A DNA stretch of 64,000 nt from a phage. A program made the translations under genes and the position numbers. Every line of letters begins with the position of its first letter. The stretch's first letter is position 1. This document shows positions 517 through 59,478 of the stretch, piece by piece. The DNA lies in sequence record PZ379074.1; one strand, 5' to 3'. A model generated the notes under the pieces. The model searched no databases. It saw only the letters and a program-made list of their open reading frames with translations, and had not been told where the DNA came from.

Positions 517-2187
517 ATGTCAATTGAACATGACAATCTTCCAGAGGATACAGGTGATGAATTTGGTGCAATCTTTGACGAAATTCAAGACGCTGGTGTT
601 TCAGAAGAGATGCAAGCGGCAGAGCAGCAAGGCACCAGAGCTAAAATCAGCCTCCAGCATAAGGCTGTTGAGAAAGATGCAGAGCGCATGGAATGCTACG
701 GTGAAGAAGACTTGGTTGAAAGAGCACGCTTGCTCGCCTCACTTCAGGTAATCAAGTTCCCTCACTACAAGCCTACCAAAGATGACTTCGTTCTACAGGC
801 AGACCGGACGAGTGACATGAACCGTTATGCGGTTTTCGACGCGTTGTTTGATAAGGGAAGTGGCATTGTTCCATTCCCTCACAAAGATACTTTTCGTGGG
901 CGCTTAGTCGACCATCGCGGCGAAACATTCACTGACCGTACCTTGGAAGTCACAGAGATAGTTGCCGCTGTCGACGCAGCAGGACTGTCTAACCCAAACT
1001 CACGTCAGGTCGCTCAATCCTATAAGGAATGGGCCATGCGTTATCAGCGCGACGACCTGATGGACTTCTTCTACAAGAAGCTTCCTGAATGGGACGGTAC
1101 TGCGCGCATTGAAAAATACCTTATCGAGCTATTCCGACCGTTCGATACAGAGTTAAACCGACAAATCGGTGTGTATTTTTGGCTATCGCTCTACAACCGC
1201 CTGACAAACCCTGGATGTCAAGCGCCAATCTCCATCGCGCTCATCGGCGGCCAGAACGCAGGGAAGAGTTATTTTAGTAAGCTACTTTGCGAAGCTATTA
1301 TGAACGACCGCCACGCAACACCGATTCCGTTGAACTTGGCCGCGCAGAACTTCAACCCGTTCTTGCGAGCTATTACGGGTCGCTCAATTATCGCGAACGT
1401 TGGCGAGATGACAGGCTTTAAAAAGGCTGACATCGAAAACATGAAAGCATTCCTGACTAAGACGGAAGATGACCTGGACTTCAAATTTGAAGATACGCAG
1501 GTGAAACCACGCCAGTGGATTGCTATCATGGACGGCAACGAATACGCAGGCATGCAGCGTGACGACACAGGCAACCGTCGTGTGTACCCTATCTTTGTTG
1601 GCCAACTCGCTGACAAGGACGGGCAACCGAACTGGTCCAAAGACTTCCAAGCTGACCTTTCCACTTTGAAAGAAGACGTTTGGCAGTTGATGGCTGAGTG
1701 TGCTGCGTGGATGGAGAAGCACGGTGAAGCAGGTTACAACGCGTTTGTTGGTGAAACATCTCGCATGCTTACTGAGTTCAGTAAAAACGAAATGGAACGC
1801 GCTCGCGGCGTTATCCGTGATGAGATGGTGGACAACGACCTTGTTGAAGTCGTCATCACCGCGCCTTATGACCGACATCACAGCGGACGCTGGCACATCA
1901 CCAGTGGTGCTATTGCTATGGGATTCAGAGCGAAATGCGGCAAGTCGCCTTTCTCTCGTACCCTTGCGCCGCACATGTCAAAGCTTGGCTTTGAGCCTGC
2001 TACCTATCGCAACCAGCGCGGTTACTTTACGCCGCTGATTAAGAATGAAGCAGGGGAATACATTTCTGATTTGATGACTATCTTAGCGTATCTTATCCGC
2101 GACGAGTCTGACCCTGAAGATATTGAATTCTTGAAGAAGGTTATTGAACGCAAACGTTCTTTAGGAAGAGATAAGGATGAATTCTGA
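517..2187 (+). CDS. P-loop NTPase, primase/helicase-like (VirE/D5-type)
   Basis: 556 aa; Walker A-like GGQNAGKS; strong RBS AGGAGG 7 nt upstream of ATG; family assignment from motif only. Confidence 0.6.
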   Translation: MSIEHDNLPEDTGDEFGAIFDEIQDAGVSEEMQAAEQQGTRAKISLQHKAVEKDAERMECYGEEDLVERARLLASLQVIKFPHYKPTKDDFVLQADRTSDMNRYAVFDALFDKGSGIVPFPHKDTFRGRLVDHRGETFTDRTLEVTEIVAAVDAAGLSNPNSRQVAQSYKEWAMRYQRDDLMDFFYKKLPEWDGTARIEKYLIELFRPFDTELNRQIGVYFWLSLYNRLTNPGCQAPISIALIGGQNAGKSYFSKLLCEAIMNDRHATPIPLNLAAQNFNPFLRAITGRSIIANVGEMTGFKKADIENMKAFLTKTEDDLDFKFEDTQVKPRQWIAIMDGNEYAGMQRDDTGNRRVYPIFVGQLADKDGQPNWSKDFQADLSTLKEDVWQLMAECAAWMEKHGEAGYNAFVGETSRMLTEFSKNEMERARGVIRDEMVDNDLVEVVITAPYDRHHSGRWHITSGAIAMGFRAKCGKSPFSRTLAPHMSKLGFEPATYRNQRGYFTPLIKNEAGEYISDLMTILAYLIRDESDPEDIEFLKKVIERKRSLGRDKDEF

Positions 2188-9571: not shown

Positions 9572-10104
9572 TGGGCGGCTTTTGGCGTAAAGCTAAATAC
9601 TCTAAAGACTTGCATTACTTCTTGGATAATGAAGGCATAAGTATATGTGGCAGGTACAGAAGGGATAATGAATCAGCGTCGCAAAGTAATAAGGCTGAAT
9701 GGTTACTCAAGGAAGAGTGCAAAGTTTGCCGCAAACGTTTTTGTGACAAAACCAGCATGACTGATTACATAAAGGAGCTTAGAAAAAGATGCAAAAGCCC
9801 GCAAGAGTTTGCCATAACTCTTTGGGATGATCACCCTGAGTTGAGAAGTGAATGGTTAAAGACTGATGCAATCAATTACATCTTCAAATCGAAATACAGG
9901 ACGACAGCAAGATATAAAATGGATGAAGCAGTAATTCAAAAGGTATTTTCTTATTGGAGGGATACAGTCGATATTGTGAAAATAAAGAAATACCAAAACG
10001 AAGTGCTGCTGGAATTGGAGAGGATTGGCTATAAAGTCACCAATAAAATGATAAAAGAAGAAATAAAAAGGAGAACGGAAAAGGGGTTGATGCCTAAGAT
10101 ATAG
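9568..10104 (+). CDS. hypothetical Lys-rich protein with Cys cluster (178 aa); AT-rich gene
   Basis: ATGA overlap; visibly lower GC than neighbours; C-x-n-CKVC-x-n-C cluster. Confidence 0.5.
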   Translation: MMGGFWRKAKYSKDLHYFLDNEGISICGRYRRDNESASQSNKAEWLLKEECKVCRKRFCDKTSMTDYIKELRKRCKSPQEFAITLWDDHPELRSEWLKTDAINYIFKSKYRTTARYKMDEAVIQKVFSYWRDTVDIVKIKKYQNEVLLELERIGYKVTNKMIKEEIKRRTEKGLMPKI

Positions 10105-10439
10105 TGAATAAACGAACACCGTTTACGTGTTTTGAAGAATGGAATGTGTACAATGGGTCGCTTTATGCGGCCTTTTGTTGTTTGGGTCGTGTTTTGCGAT
10201 GGAATAATTATGAGGTTGTGTTTTATTTATTAATTGTGCGGAAATATTTAGAAATATATTTCATAGGTCGTGTCTATTGGTCCGTGGTGTTTGTTAGGAC
10301 TTATCTATGGATTGAAATTTTAGTGTCGTGAAACGTGGTGTTTGAACACATTTGATACGCGTAAAATACGGCTAAAAATTAAGCGTATCATGGCTGCAGG
10401 CCGCGCCGTTACTGAGTTCCTATTTTCAAAAGTGGTACA

Positions 10440-10800
10440 CCCTTACGGATGATACGTCATGGTTTTTTATCCGTATCAGTGTACAGCCCTTGCCGCGCCT
10501 GGCCTGTACATTAATCTTACGGATGATACGGATAAAACTGGGCACCATTATATATATAATTTGAAAAATTAATTAACTCCATTTTAAAAACATTTAAATT
10601 ATTTTTTTCATATCCTCATACTTATGTTAATTTATATATTTAACGTATCATCCGTAAGATATAAGTAAAAACAAAGACTTGCGGCAATACGGATGATACG
10701 TTATGATACGCTTCGACCAGCCAGCAGCGGCTAAGTCATTGATTTGCATAACAAGCAGCGAAAGGGATGGATTTCTTTTATCCGTATCAAACAGTACACC
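10440..10800. repeat. iteron-like repeat cluster, 13-bp motif TACGGATGATACG / CGTATCATCCGTA, flanking an AT-rich tract
   Basis: Full copies at 10444-10456, 10518-10530, 10688-10700 (+) and 10644-10656 (rc), plus partial copies; AT-rich tract 10545-10640. Confidence 0.7.
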
Positions 10801-10939
10801 ACGCACCACGGTCCGTTATCCATTCAGCACTATGATTTGTGTACGTTTATAGCCATAATGAACATCAATCTGCACTTGAATATAATGTCCATCCATTGTA
10901 TAATTCACACTATTAATTTGCACTATGGGATTTTGCACT

Positions 10940-11413
10940 ATGAGTCAAGATTATGTAGCGATGCCTGAAGACTTTGAAGACCCGCGATTTGCAGAGCACA
11001 ATCAGGCTTTATTCGATGAGTTCATTGACCTTGTTATTCAGGGCCATGACATGCGCGCAGCTTTTGCACTAGTATTTGGAATGGAAGTTGCAACGGATAA
11101 CTACACTGGCCAGCGAATCCTTTGCGCGCAACGCAATCCATACTACAAGATGCGCTTCAAAAAGCGTATGGAAGAGATGCCACTCAAGGATTTGTGGAGC
11201 GTAAAAGGTGCAATTCACAATTTGGTCAAGCTTGTGCGTGATCCAGAAGTCGCGGCGTCAGCCAAACTTAATGCTATTCGTGAACTGAATATCATCTACG
11301 GCATCACGATGATTGATGAAAACGGCAATAGTAAAATGGGCCGTTCCATGGACGATTTCTACAAGGATTTTGGAGAGGCGGCCAAAGAAGGTGAGCAATT
11401 CTCCCGCCACTAG
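10940..11413 (+). CDS. hypothetical protein (157 aa); speculative small-terminase/DNA-binding candidate
   Basis: ORF flanked on both sides by the ATTTGCACTAT array; alternative start ATG 10925; no motif recognised. Confidence 0.5.
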   Translation: MSQDYVAMPEDFEDPRFAEHNQALFDEFIDLVIQGHDMRAAFALVFGMEVATDNYTGQRILCAQRNPYYKMRFKKRMEEMPLKDLWSVKGAIHNLVKLVRDPEVAASAKLNAIRELNIIYGITMIDENGNSKMGRSMDDFYKDFGEAAKEGEQFSRH

Positions 11414-11432
11414 CCAATTTGCACTATAAAAC

Positions 11433-11466
11433 GGCCCTAGAACACATTTTCTCCACTTCTAGGGCC
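11433..11466 (+). other. hairpin downstream of 10940..11413 (weak terminator candidate)
   Basis: GGCCCTAGAA ... TTCTAGGGCC 10-bp inverted repeat with 14-nt loop; no U-tract. Confidence 0.3.
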
Positions 11467-11841
11467 ATCGGTAATACGACGGGGAAGGTTACAACCATAA
11501 ACGCGTTATAAAGTGTATTATTATAAGTCATCTTTTAGTCACTTTCCGTAACAATTTACGACCTTCAACCGTCCAATCGAACGACTCCACCAGCAGATTT
11601 GCACTATAACCTAAGACTACCCGACCTTTCTCGTTATCGACCCGCCAGCAAGTCTCGAATAGCATCTTATTTGCACTATTAACTATCGCCGCAACTCGCG
11701 TAGGATAAGCGCAATTTGCACTATGGTCATAAAGGGATAAGGTGCGACCACTTCCGATGGACAACGTAGCGATGAGAATGAGCGTATTCATAAGCCACCA
11801 ATTTGCACTATGAAAAGCGACCCCGAAGGGCCGCCATTCTA

Positions 11842-12468
11842 TTAGATAATCTGGAAGGTGTAGGACTTGTTGCCGAACTCAAAGTTCAAGCGCCCAGCTT
11901 CCTTAAGCTTCATGCGGAAGCGAATGTGTTTGCTATCCGGCAAGCCCAGCGCGGCGAACGCTACGCGGACCGATTTGAACTCGCCTACACCCTCGACCAT
12001 GACACCGTTACGGGTGAGACGCTTTTGCGCCACTTCCTTATTATCCCAGCTTTTTGCAATACCTTCGCTATTCGAACGGCGATGGGAAGGAGTTCCATTT
12101 TGCACTACGCAATTTGCACTATCGTTTAAACCGCTCTTAACGAAGGCTTCATATTCTTCGTCGGTCATCGCGTCGAGTTCTTCCTGGGTCGGCTCAGCCT
12201 TTTTAACGACCGCACGCGCCTTATGCGTTTTTACATCGCTGGACACTTCCTCGCGCGGCTTCGCGTCGGGAATGGGCGATTCGTTGGACGGCTCATCGAG
12301 CGCGTTTAAGGACTCGATTAACGCGATTACGCGAGTCTCGGCGGTCCGGCGGTCCGCGAATTTCTTAATCGGCTTCGAACCGGAATTTGCATTATAAAAT
12401 GCAACGAGGTCGGCGGTCTTAGTTGCGATAACGTCGCCGCTAGTAGAAAAGCGATTTAAGCTAACCAT
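11842..12468 (-). CDS. hypothetical protein (208 aa); member of TTATTATG-start module
   Basis: Same RBS context AGGAGTTTATTATGG as 12549..12863; 3' third overlaps the ATTTGCACTAT repeats. Confidence 0.45.
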   Translation of the reverse strand: MVSLNRFSTSGDVIATKTADLVAFYNANSGSKPIKKFADRRTAETRVIALIESLNALDEPSNESPIPDAKPREEVSSDVKTHKARAVVKKAEPTQEELDAMTDEEYEAFVKSGLNDSANCVVQNGTPSHRRSNSEGIAKSWDNKEVAQKRLTRNGVMVEGVGEFKSVRVAFAALGLPDSKHIRFRMKLKEAGRLNFEFGNKSYTFQII

Positions 12469-12548
12469 AATAAACTCCTATTTGTTAGGGCGCTAGGCGC
12501 GAAAGAATTTTATTAAAGCGCCGCGCACGACGCTCTAAAAATCCTCTC

Positions 12549-12863
12549 TTACTCTTCGTCGTCTTCGATTAATTCGAGGGCGAAGGCGTAAGCTTTGCTA
12601 TCGTAATTAACTAAAACGGCGAGTTCGAACTCGTTAATAAACGCCGTTTTACCGCATAAATTTAATTCCGCATCGACTTCGAAGAATCCGTTTTCGTCGC
12701 GCTCTAAGCGAGAAGCAGCGAGTTGCTCGATTACCGTCGCGTCGTTAATTTCTTCGCCTAAGCGAACGCCGGAGAATTTAGCGAGAATTTCGCCGTAAGT
12801 AAGCGTAACGCCCTGGACTTCGGCGGTTGCGTTTTCGAGGGTAAAGCGGGTAACGATAGCCAT
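12549..12863 (-). CDS. small highly acidic protein (104 aa)
   Basis: Preceded by sigma70-like promoter, conserved 5'UTR hairpin and AGGAGTTTATTATG start context; ends ...LELIEDDEE. Confidence 0.6.
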   Translation of the reverse strand: MAIVTRFTLENATAEVQGVTLTYGEILAKFSGVRLGEEINDATVIEQLAASRLERDENGFFEVDAELNLCGKTAFINEFELAVLVNYDSKAYAFALELIEDDEE

Positions 12864-12931
12864 AATAAACTCCTAGTTGGGAGAGGCGTTAACGACCTAT
12901 TCGTTAACTCATCCCGTCCCGATATGAGTAC

Positions 12932-12959
12932 ATTATAATATAGTGTAGAAAAAAGTAAA
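12932..12959 (-). promoter_or_regulatory. sigma70-like promoter (TTTACT-16-TATAAT) for 12863<-12549
   Basis: Reverse complement reads cTTTACT(16 nt)TATAAT; whole cassette near-identical to 13403-13430. Confidence 0.55.
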
Positions 12960-13003
12960 GCACTTTTTCGATAAAAATGCGATAAATTATTTTATCTTTT
13001 TTC

Positions 13004-13031
13004 TTTACTTCTTCGTACACTCGCGTATACT
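13004..13031 (+). promoter_or_regulatory. sigma70-like promoter (TTTACT-16-TATACT) for 13088..13390
   Basis: cTTTACTtcttcgtacactcgcgTATACT, back-to-back with divergent promoter at 12932-12959. Confidence 0.55.
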
Positions 13032-13087
13032 TGTTTATATCGAGACGGGCGATGTCCCTTTCTTCTACTAGCATCGGGAGCTTTATT

Positions 13088-13390
13088 ATGACTACTTTAA
13101 TCTCTTCCATCCTTACTTACGACGAAGACCGCTTAACCGTTCGCTCTCTTATCGCCGCCGTTAACGCGGAACTAGAATCTAGCGCCATTAAGGTCCGCGC
13201 GGTCGCCTTCATCGGCCTTTCCTTCGACGATATGAAGTATGCCGAACGTAGCGCTATCCGCTTCGCGAAGACCGACGACGAAGCCGTTACCCTTATCGAG
13301 ACGGTTACGCCGCGCGACGAAGCGTTAATTATCGTCGAGTATATCGACGTAGAAGGCGATAAGGCTTATAAATATTTTATCGCAGAATAA
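13088..13390 (+). CDS. small acidic protein (100 aa)
   Basis: Start set at ATG 13088 within GGGAGCTTTATTATG context (track ORF 13031..13390 starts earlier). Confidence 0.55.
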   Translation: MTTLISSILTYDEDRLTVRSLIAAVNAELESSAIKVRAVAFIGLSFDDMKYAERSAIRFAKTDDEAVTLIETVTPRDEALIIVEYIDVEGDKAYKYFIAE

Positions 13391-13402
13391 CGAAAAAGTG
13401 CT

Positions 13403-13430
13403 TTACTTCTTCGTACACTAAGACTATAAT
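13403..13430 (+). promoter_or_regulatory. sigma70-like promoter (TTTACT-16-TATAAT) for 13498..13788
   Basis: gtgcTTTACTtcttcgtacactaagacTATAATg; followed by hairpin GGTAGCGA-atagg-TCGCTACC and AGGAGATTATTATG. Confidence 0.55.
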
Positions 13431-13497
13431 GTTTTATATCGAGAGGGGATGAGGTAGCGAATAGGTCGCTACCCTCCCGACCAACTAGGAGATTATT

Positions 13498-13788
13498 ATG
13501 ATTACTTTAGCCGCTATCCGTAACGCTCGCGCCGAAACTTCCGAAAACTCTAACGTATTTGGCGAAAAACTTAAAAACGTTTATCTCTTTAACGTAGATG
13601 CGACTATCGAGGAGCTTCATAGTCCTATCGATTTTAGCGAATTTACGGAACTCGAAGAGGAAGATATTTCTACTTTCCGCGTTACTATCGAAGGCAAGGT
13701 TTATTTTGCTACGGAGTTCGGCGGCGAATATCTCGCGGTATCCGAAGGCGAAGGCCGTTACTCTTTCTTTAAAATCGTCTCCTTATAA
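13498..13788 (+). CDS. small acidic protein (96 aa)
   Basis: Own promoter cassette; followed by terminator. Confidence 0.6.
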   Translation: MITLAAIRNARAETSENSNVFGEKLKNVYLFNVDATIEELHSPIDFSEFTELEEEDISTFRVTIEGKVYFATEFGGEYLAVSEGEGRYSFFKIVSL

Positions 13789-13807
13789 TACCCTTCCGTT
13801 ACTAATA

Positions 13808-13833
13808 GGCCGCGCTTAGTCGCGGCTTTTCTT
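13808..13833 (+). terminator. rho-independent terminator
   Basis: GCCGCG-cttagt-CGCGGC followed by TTTTCTT, 20 nt after stop of 13498..13788. Confidence 0.55.
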
Positions 13834-14096
13834 CGTCCCTATCCCGATGCGCGTCTACGCGAAAACTCCTTTATCCTTCCCTTCGTCGTCGCATAATCTT
13901 CTTCGAGATGCTCCTTAGTTCGCATAACAGGTATTACGTTAAATGGAGAACATCGCGTAAGTCCTTGTTTTATATAGACACCTATATCGGACCGTTAGGG
14001 CGGGTCGCGTAAGTCGTTGTTTTATAAAGGCGCAAAACTTTCCCTTCGTTCCGAACTAAAACGAGGAATATGCCGACCCTTCGTCCGAAAATAGTA

Positions 14097-14470
14097 TGCA
14101 TGCGAAATTACATGCATCTAGAATAATCCCCACCGATATTATCCTACACGCAATCATTCGCTTTCGAATCATTATGCTTCATATTATTATGCATCGAATC
14201 ATTCTCTTTCGAATTGTAACGCTGGAAACTGTAACGGCGATTGATTATTGCGTTCGTGTGGTTTTTAGGGCATGGGTCTTTTGGTGCGTTTTGCTACTTG
14301 ATGAAATTTGCGGTACACTAATCAAAATACGACACATTTGGTCCACTAACTTTTCAAAGAAAAAGTCCTAGACAGTACCGTACTATTTTGCACCCACAGG
14401 AAATTTGCAGTACACTCCTGCGCGGCAGGCAAAATAAAGGGCCGCACTAAGCGACCCACTAAGCGACCCA
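14097..14470. repeat. non-coding repeat-rich region (short direct and inverted repeats)
   Basis: ATGCATG...CATGCAT inverted repeat near 14097; AATCATTC(G/T)CTTTCGAAT direct repeats near 14149 and 14201; (G/C)AGTACACT motifs near 14303 and 14400; tandem CACTAAGCGACCCA x2 at about 14445-14472. Confidence 0.5.
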
Positions 14471-25330: not shown

Positions 25331-26251
25331 ATGACGATACCAATCAGCACGTTTCCTCTATCTGGACAAACGCCAGTATTGCCTGCTGTATATGCTAACG
25401 GTTTGGCGATTGTTTCGGAATTCACATCCGATAAAAACCTGATTGTTCCATTGAGTCCGCCATTGGCGTCTGGATACAATTCAGTTGGCCAGTTCTTTAT
25501 GATCGGTAATGATGGCGATTCTACCAGCAAGCCGAATCTGACACTTTCAGTTCCCAAAATGAACATAACAGACGTGCAGACTGGTTTAACTGCATCTACG
25601 ATCACCATCGCTTTTGGAGAAGCAGTGATTATAGGCATGGAGTCTGGAGGGTCCAAGAATGCTGTCGCCGTTAAGGTAGTCAAATCCAGCAGCAACCAAT
25701 ACACACTACCAGCGGCAACGGCTTCTGTTCTTGGCGGCGTCAAAATAGGAAGTGGCATAAGCGTTGCAGGTGACGGTACAATTAGTGTGACTCAATACTC
25801 ATTACCGATTGCATCAGCATCAACCTTGGGTGGCATAAAGGTAGGAACGACACTATCAATTGATGGTTCTGGCGTCCTTAATGCTGCTGCAAGCACTGTG
25901 CAGAACGCAAGCAACAGCGTAAGCAATCCTCCGACAACTCTGGTGAATCTGGCAGCCTTAAACCTGCCTGCAGGGAAATGGCTTGTGACAGCAAGTCAGT
26001 TGACTGTCGCGACAGCAGGAGTTCAAGCGAATACCGGAATTACAGTCAAACTGTCAACAAGTAATTCAGATATTACGGATGATGCATTTACAATGTCAGC
26101 TGGCATTCGGGCTGCAGGTCGTTTCGGCGGCAATATCCCAACAAAGATAATTACTCTTGCCGCGCCTGGCAACGTGTATCTAAACTATCAATGCACAGAC
26201 GCATTGACATCTACCGTTTACGGACAGATCACCGCAATTAAGTTGAACTAA
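25331..26251 (+). CDS. fiber-like repeat protein (306 aa)
   Basis: Internal tandem repeats ASVLGGVKIGSGISVAGDGTISV / ASTLGGIKVGTTLSIDGSGVLNA; Ser/Thr/Gly/Ala-rich. Confidence 0.5.
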   Translation: MTIPISTFPLSGQTPVLPAVYANGLAIVSEFTSDKNLIVPLSPPLASGYNSVGQFFMIGNDGDSTSKPNLTLSVPKMNITDVQTGLTASTITIAFGEAVIIGMESGGSKNAVAVKVVKSSSNQYTLPAATASVLGGVKIGSGISVAGDGTISVTQYSLPIASASTLGGIKVGTTLSIDGSGVLNAAASTVQNASNSVSNPPTTLVNLAALNLPAGKWLVTASQLTVATAGVQANTGITVKLSTSNSDITDDAFTMSAGIRAAGRFGGNIPTKIITLAAPGNVYLNYQCTDALTSTVYGQITAIKLN

Positions 26252-26261
26252 AGAGGAAGTT

Positions 26262-26399
26262 ATGCAAAAGATTATTCAGTCACGTTACGTTAAAGTGCGA
26301 AATATTAATTGCAACTCTTTGCTTTCTTGGAAATGGGCTGTTTACGACTCGATGCTGATTGGCGTTTTAGTTGCTGGAGTGCTTTTTAATATTCACTGA
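26262..26399 (+). CDS. small membrane protein (45 aa)
   Basis: Not in track; AAGAGGAAG RBS 4 nt upstream of ATG; C-terminal hydrophobic segment. Confidence 0.4.
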   Translation: MQKIIQSRYVKVRNINCNSLLSWKWAVYDSMLIGVLVAGVLFNIH

Positions 26400-26439
26400 A
26401 TCGCCTGGCAATGGATTGCCGCAGGATTTTACGCGTATA

Positions 26440-26705
26440 ATGACGTATCATCCGTATCAAGTAAGTAGTTGTTTTCAAAAGAATCTTACGGATGATACGG
26501 ATGATACGCGTTGCCGCGATACTTTATAAGAGTTTATAAAAAAATAAAATTATATATCTAATTTAATTTTATTTTTTTATAAACTCTTATATATGAAAAG
26601 TATCCGTATCATCCGTATCATCCGTAGCACACCAGTGATAGCGCGGCTTATACACCGATACGGATAAAAATACACCTCATTTTATCCGTATCATCCGTAT
26701 CACAC
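26440..26705. repeat. iteron-like repeat cluster (TACGGATGATACG / CGTATCATCCGTA, tandem 9-mers) flanking a palindromic AT-rich element
   Basis: Copies at about 26444-26456, 26487-26507 (tandem), 26605-26627 (tandem), 26686-26700; same motif as 10440-10800. Confidence 0.7.
26526..26590. repeat. perfect 26-bp inverted repeat with 13-bp spacer, AT-rich
   Basis: ATAAGAGTTTATAAAAAAATAAAATT (26526-26551) exactly complementary to AATTTTATTTTTTTATAAACTCTTAT (26565-26590). Confidence 0.85.
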
Positions 26706-26811
26706 TAATTAAGGCGCGGCTATATCGGTTGTTATACATATTCAAACCATAATTATTGTTTGCCTAAGTTTTTTTCATTAGATATAATACACAATACTTA
26801 TTTGAGGGTGG

Positions 26812-28230
26812 ATGCGAATGCAAACGGCACGCGAAATTGACAAAAATGGATTCTTGACGATTGTGGGTTGTCCCATTTCGTCATTTGGCATTTTTGATTA
26901 TTCTGCAGGTCAGGTTGGACTTGATGGTGATCCGAATCGCATCGTAAAAGTTTATCGCCCAGAGTCAGCGGTGAAAGACCCCGAAGCGATAGATTCATTC
27001 AAAAATATCCCTTTCATCGACAATCACGAAATGCTTTCTGGATTCGAAGGTGATGAGGATAACACAGCACCCGAAGAGTATGGCGTTGATGGCGTTCTAA
27101 CTGGCAATGTTTATTATGACAAGCCATGGATGCGCGGCGACCTTAAAGTTTTTAGCCGTCGTCTGAAGAAAGCCATCGATTCTGGAAAGGTTGACTTGTC
27201 TTTGGGCTATGACTGTGAATTCATCATACAGTCTGGAGAGTTTGACGGGCAGCCGTATGAAGTGGTACAGACAACTCTTCGCGGCAACCACATTGCTCTC
27301 GTGGACGTTGGTCGAGTACCAGGTGCACGGGTGCTGGATGGTCGTTGCTTTGACCATCTTTGTTTGACGACTGTAACACCATCCAACGAGGATTTAGACA
27401 TGCCAAAACCGTTAAAAGGTAAAGCGCGTGATAATGCTGTTGAACAGCTGAAATCACTGATCCCTGCGCTCGAACAATTTCTGAATGAAGAGAGCACCGA
27501 AGCTGCTCATCAGGACGAAGTTGAAGTGAAAGCAGAAGAGAAGGATTCAACCGAAGAACGTGAAGAAGTGATGGTTGATCCAGAAGTTAAAGCAGAAGCT
27601 GAAGAGACTCCAGAAGGTGAAGAGAAGTTTGAAGTTGAAACTGAATCTCACGCTGGCGGCGAGCTTCCGCAACTGATCAGCCAAATCGAAGCACTTATTG
27701 CAAAACTGAAAGGTGGCGCGGTAGGTGATGAAGAAGAAGTTGAAGCCGAAGTCAAAGACGAAGAAGTTGAAGTCAAGGCTGAAGATGTATCACCTTGCGA
27801 CAAAGCTGAAGATGTGGTTAGCGGCCTGCAAAACAGCAACGTAAAGGGGGCTTCGGTCGAAAAAGATGACAAACCGACAAAAGCGGCGAAAGCGTCGCCA
27901 GGTCCAGCAAAAGGGGAACACTCAATGGCATCTGATTCAGCAGTTGCTGCTTTCTACGCTGATTCTGCTCGTAAGAATAGCCTCTACCAGCGCCTGTCTA
28001 AAGTTGTTGGTGCCTTTGATCATGCAACTATGGACTCCAAGTCCGTAGCGAAATATGGCGCTAAAAAGTTAGGCTTGAAGTGCGTTGATGGTGCTGAGTT
28101 TGACGTGGTGGATAATTATCTGCGCGGCGTTGAACACGGTCAAAAACAGCGTGTAGTCGCAAAACAAAAGGCCGCTGCGGATTCTGCAGCAACTGACGAA
28201 GCATTTGAAGCTTGGTTGAAAGGGGAATAA
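26812..28230 (+). CDS. prohead protease/scaffolding-like protein (acidic coiled-coil middle region)
   Basis: 472 aa; Glu/Lys/Val-rich acidic repeat region; position between portal/MuF and capsid. Confidence 0.5.
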   Translation: MRMQTAREIDKNGFLTIVGCPISSFGIFDYSAGQVGLDGDPNRIVKVYRPESAVKDPEAIDSFKNIPFIDNHEMLSGFEGDEDNTAPEEYGVDGVLTGNVYYDKPWMRGDLKVFSRRLKKAIDSGKVDLSLGYDCEFIIQSGEFDGQPYEVVQTTLRGNHIALVDVGRVPGARVLDGRCFDHLCLTTVTPSNEDLDMPKPLKGKARDNAVEQLKSLIPALEQFLNEESTEAAHQDEVEVKAEEKDSTEEREEVMVDPEVKAEAEETPEGEEKFEVETESHAGGELPQLISQIEALIAKLKGGAVGDEEEVEAEVKDEEVEVKAEDVSPCDKAEDVVSGLQNSNVKGASVEKDDKPTKAAKASPGPAKGEHSMASDSAVAAFYADSARKNSLYQRLSKVVGAFDHATMDSKSVAKYGAKKLGLKCVDGAEFDVVDNYLRGVEHGQKQRVVAKQKAAADSAATDEAFEAWLKGE

Positions 28231-59307: not shown

Positions 59308-59478
59308 TTATTGATTAATTACTGTGTTGCCTTCGATGGAATAAGTCTCAATGGAACCGACGCGCTCGTGGTTAATCTTTGCGTTTTCGATTCTTATTAC
59401 TTCAAATCCAACACCTTCTTGATCAATCTTCACTTCTGCTACGTCGCCAATCACTTCTACAACAACTTTGATAGTCAT
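59308..59478 (-). CDS. hypothetical small protein (56 aa)
   Basis: Not in track (<60 aa); starts 3 nt after SDR stop. Confidence 0.35.
   Translation of the reverse strand: MTIKVVVEVIGDVAEVKIDQEGVGFEVIRIENAKINHERVGSIETYSIEGNTVINQ

Follow-up and report, generated by a model that had tools for sequence, protein, structure and literature searches.

An iteron element in the head gene region of a wifcevirus is, by its motifs and geometry, a paralogue of the genome-terminus site

Introduction

What function is served by an intergenic stretch packed with short repeats in both orientations, mirrored about an AT-rich core, inside the head gene module of a phage? We addressed this question for one such element, designated c1, in a 64,000-nucleotide stretch of phage DNA (sequence record PZ379074.1; the window). 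A sequence-only reading had taken the locus for an origin-like element in a 560-bp intergenic gap, with a packaging site as an alternative. The non-coding part of that gap is 412 bp (26400-26811), and the figure of 560 bp counts a 45-aa open reading frame (ORF) in.

Few Pseudomonas phages are used in therapy as much as the pbunaviruses, whose E. coli relatives are the wifceviruses. The packaging signal of this group has so far been undefined, with a proposed read-start position in phage JG024 only. The literature that we searched on these regions contained only a predicted sigma-70 promoter, a putative pac coordinate and an "AT-rich region"; it held no description of the architecture of iterons and GCCGCR motifs, or of the paired arrangement, reported below.

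Results

Genomic setting of c1

A megablast search with positions 25800-27300 identified the window as a Wifcevirus, a PB1-like E. coli myophage. Twenty-nine Wifcevirus genomes matched this segment at 92-99% identity, including the E. coli and Shigella myophages WFH, WFC, ECML-117, FEC19 and Mansfield. The gene order around c1 is portal, MuF-like, head-fibre, 45-aa ORF, c1 and head maturation protease gene, and the genes flanking c1 on both sides are transcribed in the same direction. The sigma-70-like promoter on the protease side of c1 precedes the protease/scaffold/capsid operon and is invariant in eight wifceviruses. A coding function for the gap was rejected: only short ORFs run through the repeats, and strains differ by a 4-nt indel in the core.

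The position of the 45-aa ORF and its SWKWAVYD motif are kept in Kylevirus, Pbunavirus and Myosmarvirus. Homologues at L009:19339-19491, L012:11285-11422 and L011:13621-13770 carry a motif resembling SW(K/R)WAVYD followed by a hydrophobic tail. Because position and motif are shared across four genera, the ORF likely encodes a genuine small membrane protein.

Iterons of c1 are mirrored about an AT-rich core

We counted copies of the repeat unit in the window and in shuffled controls. The 9-mer GATACGGAT occurs in 10 exact copies in the 64 kb, compared with 0.25 expected, and none of 100 shuffled controls reached this number; seven of the ten copies lie at 26450-26701. The 13-mer TACGGATGATACG likewise has 10 exact copies in the window, six of them at 26444-26699 on both strands. 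Allowing one mismatch in the search of the window added scattered single matches only, and the iterons form two clusters there, c1 and a second one, c2. Within c1, strict 9-bp tandem arrays occupy 26487-26508, 26602-26626 and 26684-26702, and the first of these is a perfect 22-nt inverted partner of 26605-26626. The whole is arranged about a dyad centre near 26556 (Table 1).

No other 80-nt stretch of the window is as AT-rich as the core of c1 (8.75% GC). Several iterons adjoin this core, as in iteron-type origins, and inverted iteron arrays stand on both sides of the core, as in c2 and as expected of a pac-type site. The anatomy given by the sequence-only reading, with iterons in both orientations around an AT-rich core, was therefore correct. 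The repeats also recur in related genomes: an alignment of eight wifceviruses shows no variation in the iterons, GCCGCR motifs and right half-core of c1.

Table 1. Coordinates of c1, c2 and neighbouring features in the window
Feature	Position	Strand	Remark
VapE-like SF3 helicase gene	517-2187		24 kb from c1
Sister element c2: same iterons and GCCGCR motifs, same geometry	10400..10790	.
Left physical genome end, between CTCC and ATTTTAAAA	10580..10581	.	within c2 core, 8 nt from dyad centre
Direct terminal repeat (DTR), 3701 bp	10581..14281	.	mapped from WFH and Mansfield
Two overlapping sigma-70-like promoters 5' of terS	10859..10904	+	consensus matches only
Small terminase (TerS) gene	10940..11413	+	first gene 3' of c2; PDB 7UXE "Small terminase", E = 7e-34; TerS in Mansfield annotation
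45-aa ORF, hydrophobic tail	26262..26399	+	directly 5' of c1
Element c1, whole: GCCGCR motifs and 9-bp iterons, dyad-symmetric about AT-rich core	26416..26721	.	collinear with c2
Outer left GCCGCA motif, left-hand orientation	26418..26423	+
Outer left iterons CGTATCATCCGTATCA	26444..26459	-
Inner left iteron array TACGGATGA x2.4, 9-bp period	26487..26508	+
Inner left GCCGCG motif	26513..26518	+
AT-rich core, palindromic in this genome only	26525..26591	.
Inner right iteron array ATCCGTATC x2.8 plus one degenerate copy	26602..26629	-
Right CGCGGC motif, mirror orientation of GCCGCR	26642..26647	+
Single iteron GATACGGAT, opposite orientation	26657..26665	+	c2 copy at same +100 offset
Outer right iteron array ATCCGTATC x2.1	26684..26702	-
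Outer right CGCGGC motif	26715..26720	+
Sigma-70-like promoter TTGCCT-17-TATAAT, 10/12 matches	26760..26788	+	consensus match only
Head maturation protease/scaffold gene	26812..28230	+	3' of c1

The palindrome in the core is private to this genome

The sequence-only reading had placed an exact 26-bp inverted repeat at the heart of the locus, as an unwinding or cruciform element. The repeat is present, and its size is in fact slightly larger, with 31-nt arms (26525-26555 and 26561-26591) that differ by one mismatch, 28 bp of exact pairing and a 5-nt centre. When cores were folded as single-stranded DNA, the c1 core of this genome gave -22.5 kcal/mol (z = -8.3), compared with -4 kcal/mol (z = +1.2) for the WFH-type c1 core and -6.5 kcal/mol (z = -0.5) for the c2 core of this genome. 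The c1 core of the Pantoea phage PA1, which has an independent 31-nt quasi-palindrome at the same dyad centre, gave -14.3 kcal/mol (z = -5.4).

We then checked the conservation of the palindrome in related phages. The results showed that it is missing from all 29 sequenced wifceviruses, among which the best match over 26470-26640 (171 nt) reaches 95.4%; the subject spans over this segment exceed the query length by 4 nt or more in 28 genomes, and in the remaining one, Bas101, the span falls short of it by 5 nt. In all eight wifceviruses aligned base by base, the left arm is different and the left half-core is 4 nt longer, and the left arm of the window (26525-26555) stands in place of a 35-nt segment of the relatives (WFH, L001:16132-16166). 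The conspicuous perfect palindrome, taken earlier for an unwinding or cruciform element, is one genome's private feature and not a conserved origin core.

The left arm of the window is the reverse complement of the right arm, as would result from an intrastrand template switch (quasi-palindrome correction). The palindrome looks like a recent private change in which the inverted right half-core was written over the left half, or is possibly an assembly artefact. If it is a natural mutation, the exact left half-core sequence of c1, the homologue of the c2 segment that carries the cut, would not be essential. The palindrome stands outside the conserved mechanism.

Three other assignments of the palindrome were rejected. 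It is not a conserved functional core, given its absence from the relatives and the lack of hairpin potential in the WFH-type core. Nor is it an intrinsic terminator, since it is nearly pure A/T and missing in relatives, and has no G+C-rich hairpin followed by a T run; the one terminator-like match found (26361-26383) lies within the 45-aa ORF. Rfam matches to known RNAs were sub-threshold and of the miRNA-precursor hairpin type (at most 37 bits, compared with 80-140 required).

The sister element c2 contains the left genome end

All remaining iteron copies in the window lie at 10444-10788, in the second cluster c2, which was missing from the sequence-only reading. In AT content, the c2 core ranks second in the window, after that of c1. 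Both elements are collinear, in the order iterons, AATCTTACGGATGATACGGAT, AT-rich core and CGTATCATCCGTA, and their cores have ATTTAA-TTATTTTTTT-ATA..CTC in common. Relative to the dyad centre, the inner iteron lies at -70/-62 in both elements, the inner right iteron at +46 to +62 in c1 and +60 in c2, YGCGGC at +86 in c1 and +92 in c2, and the reversed iteron at +100 in both. Between c1 and c2 the motifs are kept and the spacers have diverged. That only the motifs are common to the two elements argues for selection for the same factor and against homogenisation by gene conversion.

To locate genome ends, we aligned deposited records with the window. The records of WFH, WFC, Ro157lw, SP13 and Mansfield all begin at the base equivalent to window position 10581, inside the c2 core, and those of WFH, WFC, Ro157lw and SP13 carry the terminal repeat at both ends. 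Wifcevirus terminal repeats have been reported as about 3.7 kb (Korf et al.), and the Mansfield record was opened at the PhageTerm-predicted boundary of a 3,673-bp DTR; Mansfield and WFH agree to the base at both DTR boundaries. With the deposited termini inside its core and terS directly downstream, c2 is where the left genome end forms. The sequence-only reading's alternative of a packaging site is thus the one to which the evidence points. By motif classes and geometry held in common, c1 is a conserved paralogue of this packaging/terminus site.

The right DTR boundary (14281/14282; region 13950-14420) contains no c1/c2 iterons. Near it, TCGCGTAAGTC(C/G)TTGTTTTATA occurs twice (13953 and 14005), as does a 45-nt unit (14136 and 14181) with 15-nt AATCATT..TTCG periods, and AAATTTGC(G/A)GTACACT occurs twice beside the boundary (14305 and 14402). 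Without iterons and with direct repeats of its own, the right boundary indicates that the two genome ends are defined by different sequences. On the other side, the segment upstream of c2 (10104-10400) varies among wifceviruses by a 21-nt indel and several substitutions, and from 10440 on the iterons and core are almost invariant.

The element c1 does not adjoin terS: it follows this gene at a distance of 15.3 kb, in the gap that separates the 45-aa ORF from the protease gene. A mature virion DNA end, the defining feature of a pac site, was found at c1 in none of the deposited records or papers. The full motif set of c1 and its c2-like geometry would fit a secondary packaging start that is cut in a minority of events, too rare for PhageTerm to detect, and one metagenomic genome, IMGVR_UViG_3300045988_152943, ends inside c1, which could equally be an assembly break. 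We nevertheless regard such a rare second cut as highly unlikely: no record or paper places ends at c1, and the left half-core, homologous to the cut-bearing c2 segment, has been overwritten in this genome. That contig (L020, 68,520 bp) stops 334 nt upstream of the protease gene, just to the left of the inner iteron array; the assembly probably broke there at the repeats, but this is the sole hint of an end at c1. Metagenomic contig ends near c1 in general were rejected as DNA ends, as they scatter over several hundred bases and are probably assembly breaks.

Paired elements and a mirrored GCCGCR motif in other genera

We next examined related genera. Two paralogous elements each are present in PA1 (Pantoea, Kylevirus), Spe5P4 (Serratia, Myosmarvirus) and HTN4 (Pseudomonas, Pbunavirus), one 5' of terS and one 5' of the protease gene after the homologous small ORF, and paired elements also occur in metagenomic lineages. 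The iteron sequence is lineage-specific and common to c1 and c2 in each lineage with the pair: GATACGGAT in Wifcevirus, AACGGTTAT in Kylevirus (PA1), ACTTTTCG / AAAAGTAA in Myosmarvirus and AATTTGGTA / AATTTCC in Pbunavirus. IMG/VR scans revealed at least 10 iteron types 5' of the protease gene. Six lineages had both loci on a single contig; in these, lineage-specific 8-mers are common to both elements and nearly missing from 10-12 kb of flanking DNA.

In c1 and c2 of every lineage examined, GCCGCR stands to the left of the core, and to the right stands its complement, YGCGGC. Across 21 elements, GCCGCR is forward in 41 cases and reverse in 3 on the left, and forward in 1 and reverse in 39 on the right (Fisher p = 6e-19, a value that overstates the evidence because the lineages compared are phylogenetically related and not independent). 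The orientation rule is nearly absolute. By its sequence, the element is a large dyad-symmetric assembly site that combines one fast-evolving and one conserved putative recognition motif.

Genome ends in the other genera fall in the same place. The Pantoea phage Kyle record, with a DTR at both ends, begins inside the c2 core, 36 nt upstream of a conserved CCTTC-TAC; in wifceviruses, the corresponding distance from the end to the equivalent motif is 33 nt. MyoSmar has a 3,559-bp DTR by PhageTerm, with the record reopened at the repeat, and MTx a 3,566-bp DTR; both boundaries fall between inverted iterons, the MyoSmar position being inferred from the stated repeat length. For JG024, which packages by the headful mechanism, 36 of 161 long reads begin at 59,376 +/- 5, the authors' putative pac, a position within the c2 core that is 14 nt away from the midpoint of CCAATTTCCTAATTTCC and AGTAATTTGGTAATTTGG. 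In four genera, end positions are thus at most about 15 bp from the dyad centre of a c2-type core. The pac of SCUT-S1 was reported "in an AT-rich region" that in its authors' words "could be a replication origin"; its coordinates are not in the text, and the record does not open at pac.

The Xanthomonas phage XcP1 has no iteron element 5' of the protease gene (L013:7276-7647, L018:25700-26100). Its c2-like element, with GCCGCG twice, an AT core and TGCGGC three times, directly follows the primase gene and lies 3 kb upstream of terS. This layout indicates that the paired arrangement is not universal and that c2 is separable from terS. IMG/VR scans likewise found no iterons 5' of the protease gene in several other lineages; c1 therefore appears dispensable in some relatives. 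Its absence there would suit a non-functional relic of an old pac duplication, kept c2-like by occasional gene conversion, but we consider this extremely improbable, as the pair is kept in at least six lineages with TerS only 31-42% identical, the motifs are conserved while spacers have diverged, the iterons are invariant within the genus and the mirror orientation of GCCGCR is kept in c1 elements.

In several records, coding sequences are annotated over the terS-proximal element: the "hypothetical protein" genes ABMZ59_76 of HTN4 (L015:24344-24997) and PJG24_078 of JG024 (L017:706-1287), and three tiny genes in Spe5P4 (L016:3144-3492). Given the iteron, GCCGCR and AT-core content of the element, these calls are probably spurious.

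Candidate binding proteins and functions

TerS is 31-42% identical between genera, and Kyle and PA1 have 59% identical TerS and 70% identical proteases. The TerS of the window is 41% identical to that of E217. The matching structure, PDB 7UXE, is a ten-chain entry, which we take to be the TerS decamer of the Pbunavirus E217. According to a review, purified E217 TerS showed no appreciable DNA binding in vitro, with DNA that the review does not specify, and is hypothesised to stack via its C-terminal helix (PMC9611059). The terS gene lies inside the DTR, about 8.5 kb from terL and behind sigma-70-like promoters at the left genome end. It is annotated as "hypothetical protein" in WFH, WFC, Ro157lw, SP13, ECML-117, Eco4M-7 and F13, and PHROGs places its product in phrog_4783, function class unknown.

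In placement, the promoters 5' of terS correspond to the one at 26760-26788: the former follow c2 as the latter follows c1. The two elements might be operators or activating sites through which a non-terminase regulator acts on the terS and head-operon promoters, with the end in c2 being coincidental. Strong sigma-70-like promoters directed at terS and at the protease gene follow the two elements at a distance of 60-250 nt, PA1, Spe5P4 and HTN4 have analogous TATAAT boxes, and a sigma-70 promoter within the c1 core of Pbunavirus had been predicted in earlier papers. However, ends so close to the dyad centre in four genera are hard to accept as coincidence, and at about 300 bp, with more than 10 sites, such an element is oversized for an operator. 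A single DTR gene carries the annotation "transcriptional regulator" (69 aa); its product was rejected as iteron binder because the gene is absent from the window, WFH, WFC and Mansfield, where the iterons are identical. Pure transcriptional control by a non-terminase regulator is thus quite unlikely. The 69-aa gene (ECML-117 gp19, L006:5082-5291) is present in Ro157lw, SP13, Eco4M-7 and F13. The main text of the ONT-cappable-seq study of the Pbunavirus 14-1 mentions nothing on the c1 core region.

A second possibility is that c1, and perhaps c2, is a replication origin, with the terminase cut separate or superimposed; the initiator, for example the VapE-like SF3 helicase encoded by the phage, would bind GCCGCR and/or the iterons, melt the AT-rich core and assemble helicases head to head. 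Iterons and an AT-rich core with dyad symmetry fit an origin equally well, RepB-like or VirE-like primase genes adjoin c2 in Pbunavirus, Myosmarvirus and XcP1, and two dispersed sites with common iterons recall ori and crr of satellite phage P4. The guess of the SCUT-S1 authors points the same way. On the other hand, the GC skew keeps its sign at 26.5 kb, a weak test since skew follows gene orientation, and gene directions are the same on both sides of c1 and converge on c2, whose flanking genes point toward it from both sides. There is no initiator gene beside c1, where the neighbours are the head-fibre gene, the 45-aa ORF and the protease gene. The only biochemical event mapped in such elements is terminase-type end formation, and c1 is missing in some relatives. 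Of the origin-like element, then, the anatomy stands, while a skew inflection, an adjacent initiator gene and a shared palindrome are all lacking, and we consider an origin, the main rival reading, possible but doubtful.

Discussion

We propose, with a probability of roughly 0.45, that c1 is a second, uncut copy of the packaging-initiation/terminus site, with an auxiliary or regulatory role. What links c1 to packaging is its paralogy with c2. On this proposal, c1 and c2 would both be dyad-symmetric protein-assembly sites, with iterons and GCCGCR motifs mirrored around a deformable AT-rich core. At c2 the terminase cuts at most about 15 bp from the dyad centre and thereby produces the left genome end, a step to which the deposited termini attest. 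The same sequence-specific proteins would load on c1, where the complex is presumably not productive for cleavage, given that no mature end lies there. The likeliest reader of the iterons is the TerS ring, being encoded beside c2 and fast-evolving (31-42%), and neighbouring ring subunits could read iterons 9 bp apart. In cis, c1 may bind terminase in an auxiliary capacity, act as a partner for c2, and/or control the protease/scaffold/capsid promoter from upstream.

A stronger version, which we hold to be unlikely, would make c1 and c2 an obligatory two-site signal, in which stacked TerS decamers, or TerS plus a partner that together recognise iterons and GCCGCR motifs, synapse both elements, and DNA lacking either site is not licensed for the cut at c2. 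If true, packaging initiation would be coupled to the head operon that starts at c1, and a "twin pac" would be conserved across the Pbunavirus-Wifcevirus supergroup.

For the Pbunavirus/wifcevirus group, these results provide a testable candidate for terminase recognition, namely lineage-specific iterons and a universal GCCGCR mirrored around the cut, and the signal comes as a conserved pair of which one member has never been seen as an end. The 9-bp tandem spacing bears on how ring-shaped small terminases read DNA. For rebooting or engineering these phages, the elements mark intergenic regions to leave untouched, and in annotation, terS and the two elements have mostly been passed over or lie under doubtful small CDSs.

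Among known systems, the pac sites of SPP1 (pacL-pacC-pacR) and P1 resemble these elements in having short repeated motifs on both sides of the end-forming region, as shown for c2, and AT-rich, bendable DNA between motifs; like them, c2 is close to terS. Unlike them, the present elements combine two motif classes, lineage-specific iterons and a family-wide GCCGCR, with strict dyad symmetry, have a second, uncut copy 16 kb away, and in Wifcevirus, Kylevirus and Myosmarvirus have a cut that marks a DTR boundary and not a headful series.

In T4, the twin pac sequences lie in genes 16 and 19. The "twin ring pac synapsis" described for this phage involves two homologous TerS-binding sequences whose pairing by stacked gp16 rings has been proposed (PMC9611059). 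In both cases a pair of homologous sites lies in the late region, separated by a few to tens of kb, and one site of the pair is at terS. However, the T4 sites are inside coding sequence and lack the architecture of iterons and AT core, and T4 is not known to make a sequence-specific end; the two sites here are homologous in sequence, and synapsis or recombination between them would be hypothetical.

Satellite phage P4 carries ori and crr, dispersed cis sites with octamer iterons bound by the alpha primase-helicase. As in P4, separated sites carry the same short iterons in both orientations, one of them with an AT-rich segment, and the phage encodes an SF3-type (VapE/D5-like) helicase, whose binding is putative here. 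Neither P4 site is known as a packaging end, whereas the only event mapped here is end formation at c2.

Iteron-type origins include lambda ori and plasmid oriV, and dyad-symmetric origins of SF3 helicases are found in SV40 and papillomavirus. Clustered short repeats by an AT-rich region and mirrored conserved motifs are common to these origins and c1, but c1 has no cis initiator gene and no skew shift, and in those origins genome ends are not known to map in a sister copy, as they do here at c2. We therefore file c1 neither with pac sites, for want of an end at c1, nor with iteron origins, for want of a cis initiator; it is best described as part of a two-copy, dyad-symmetric site of the putative terminase type.
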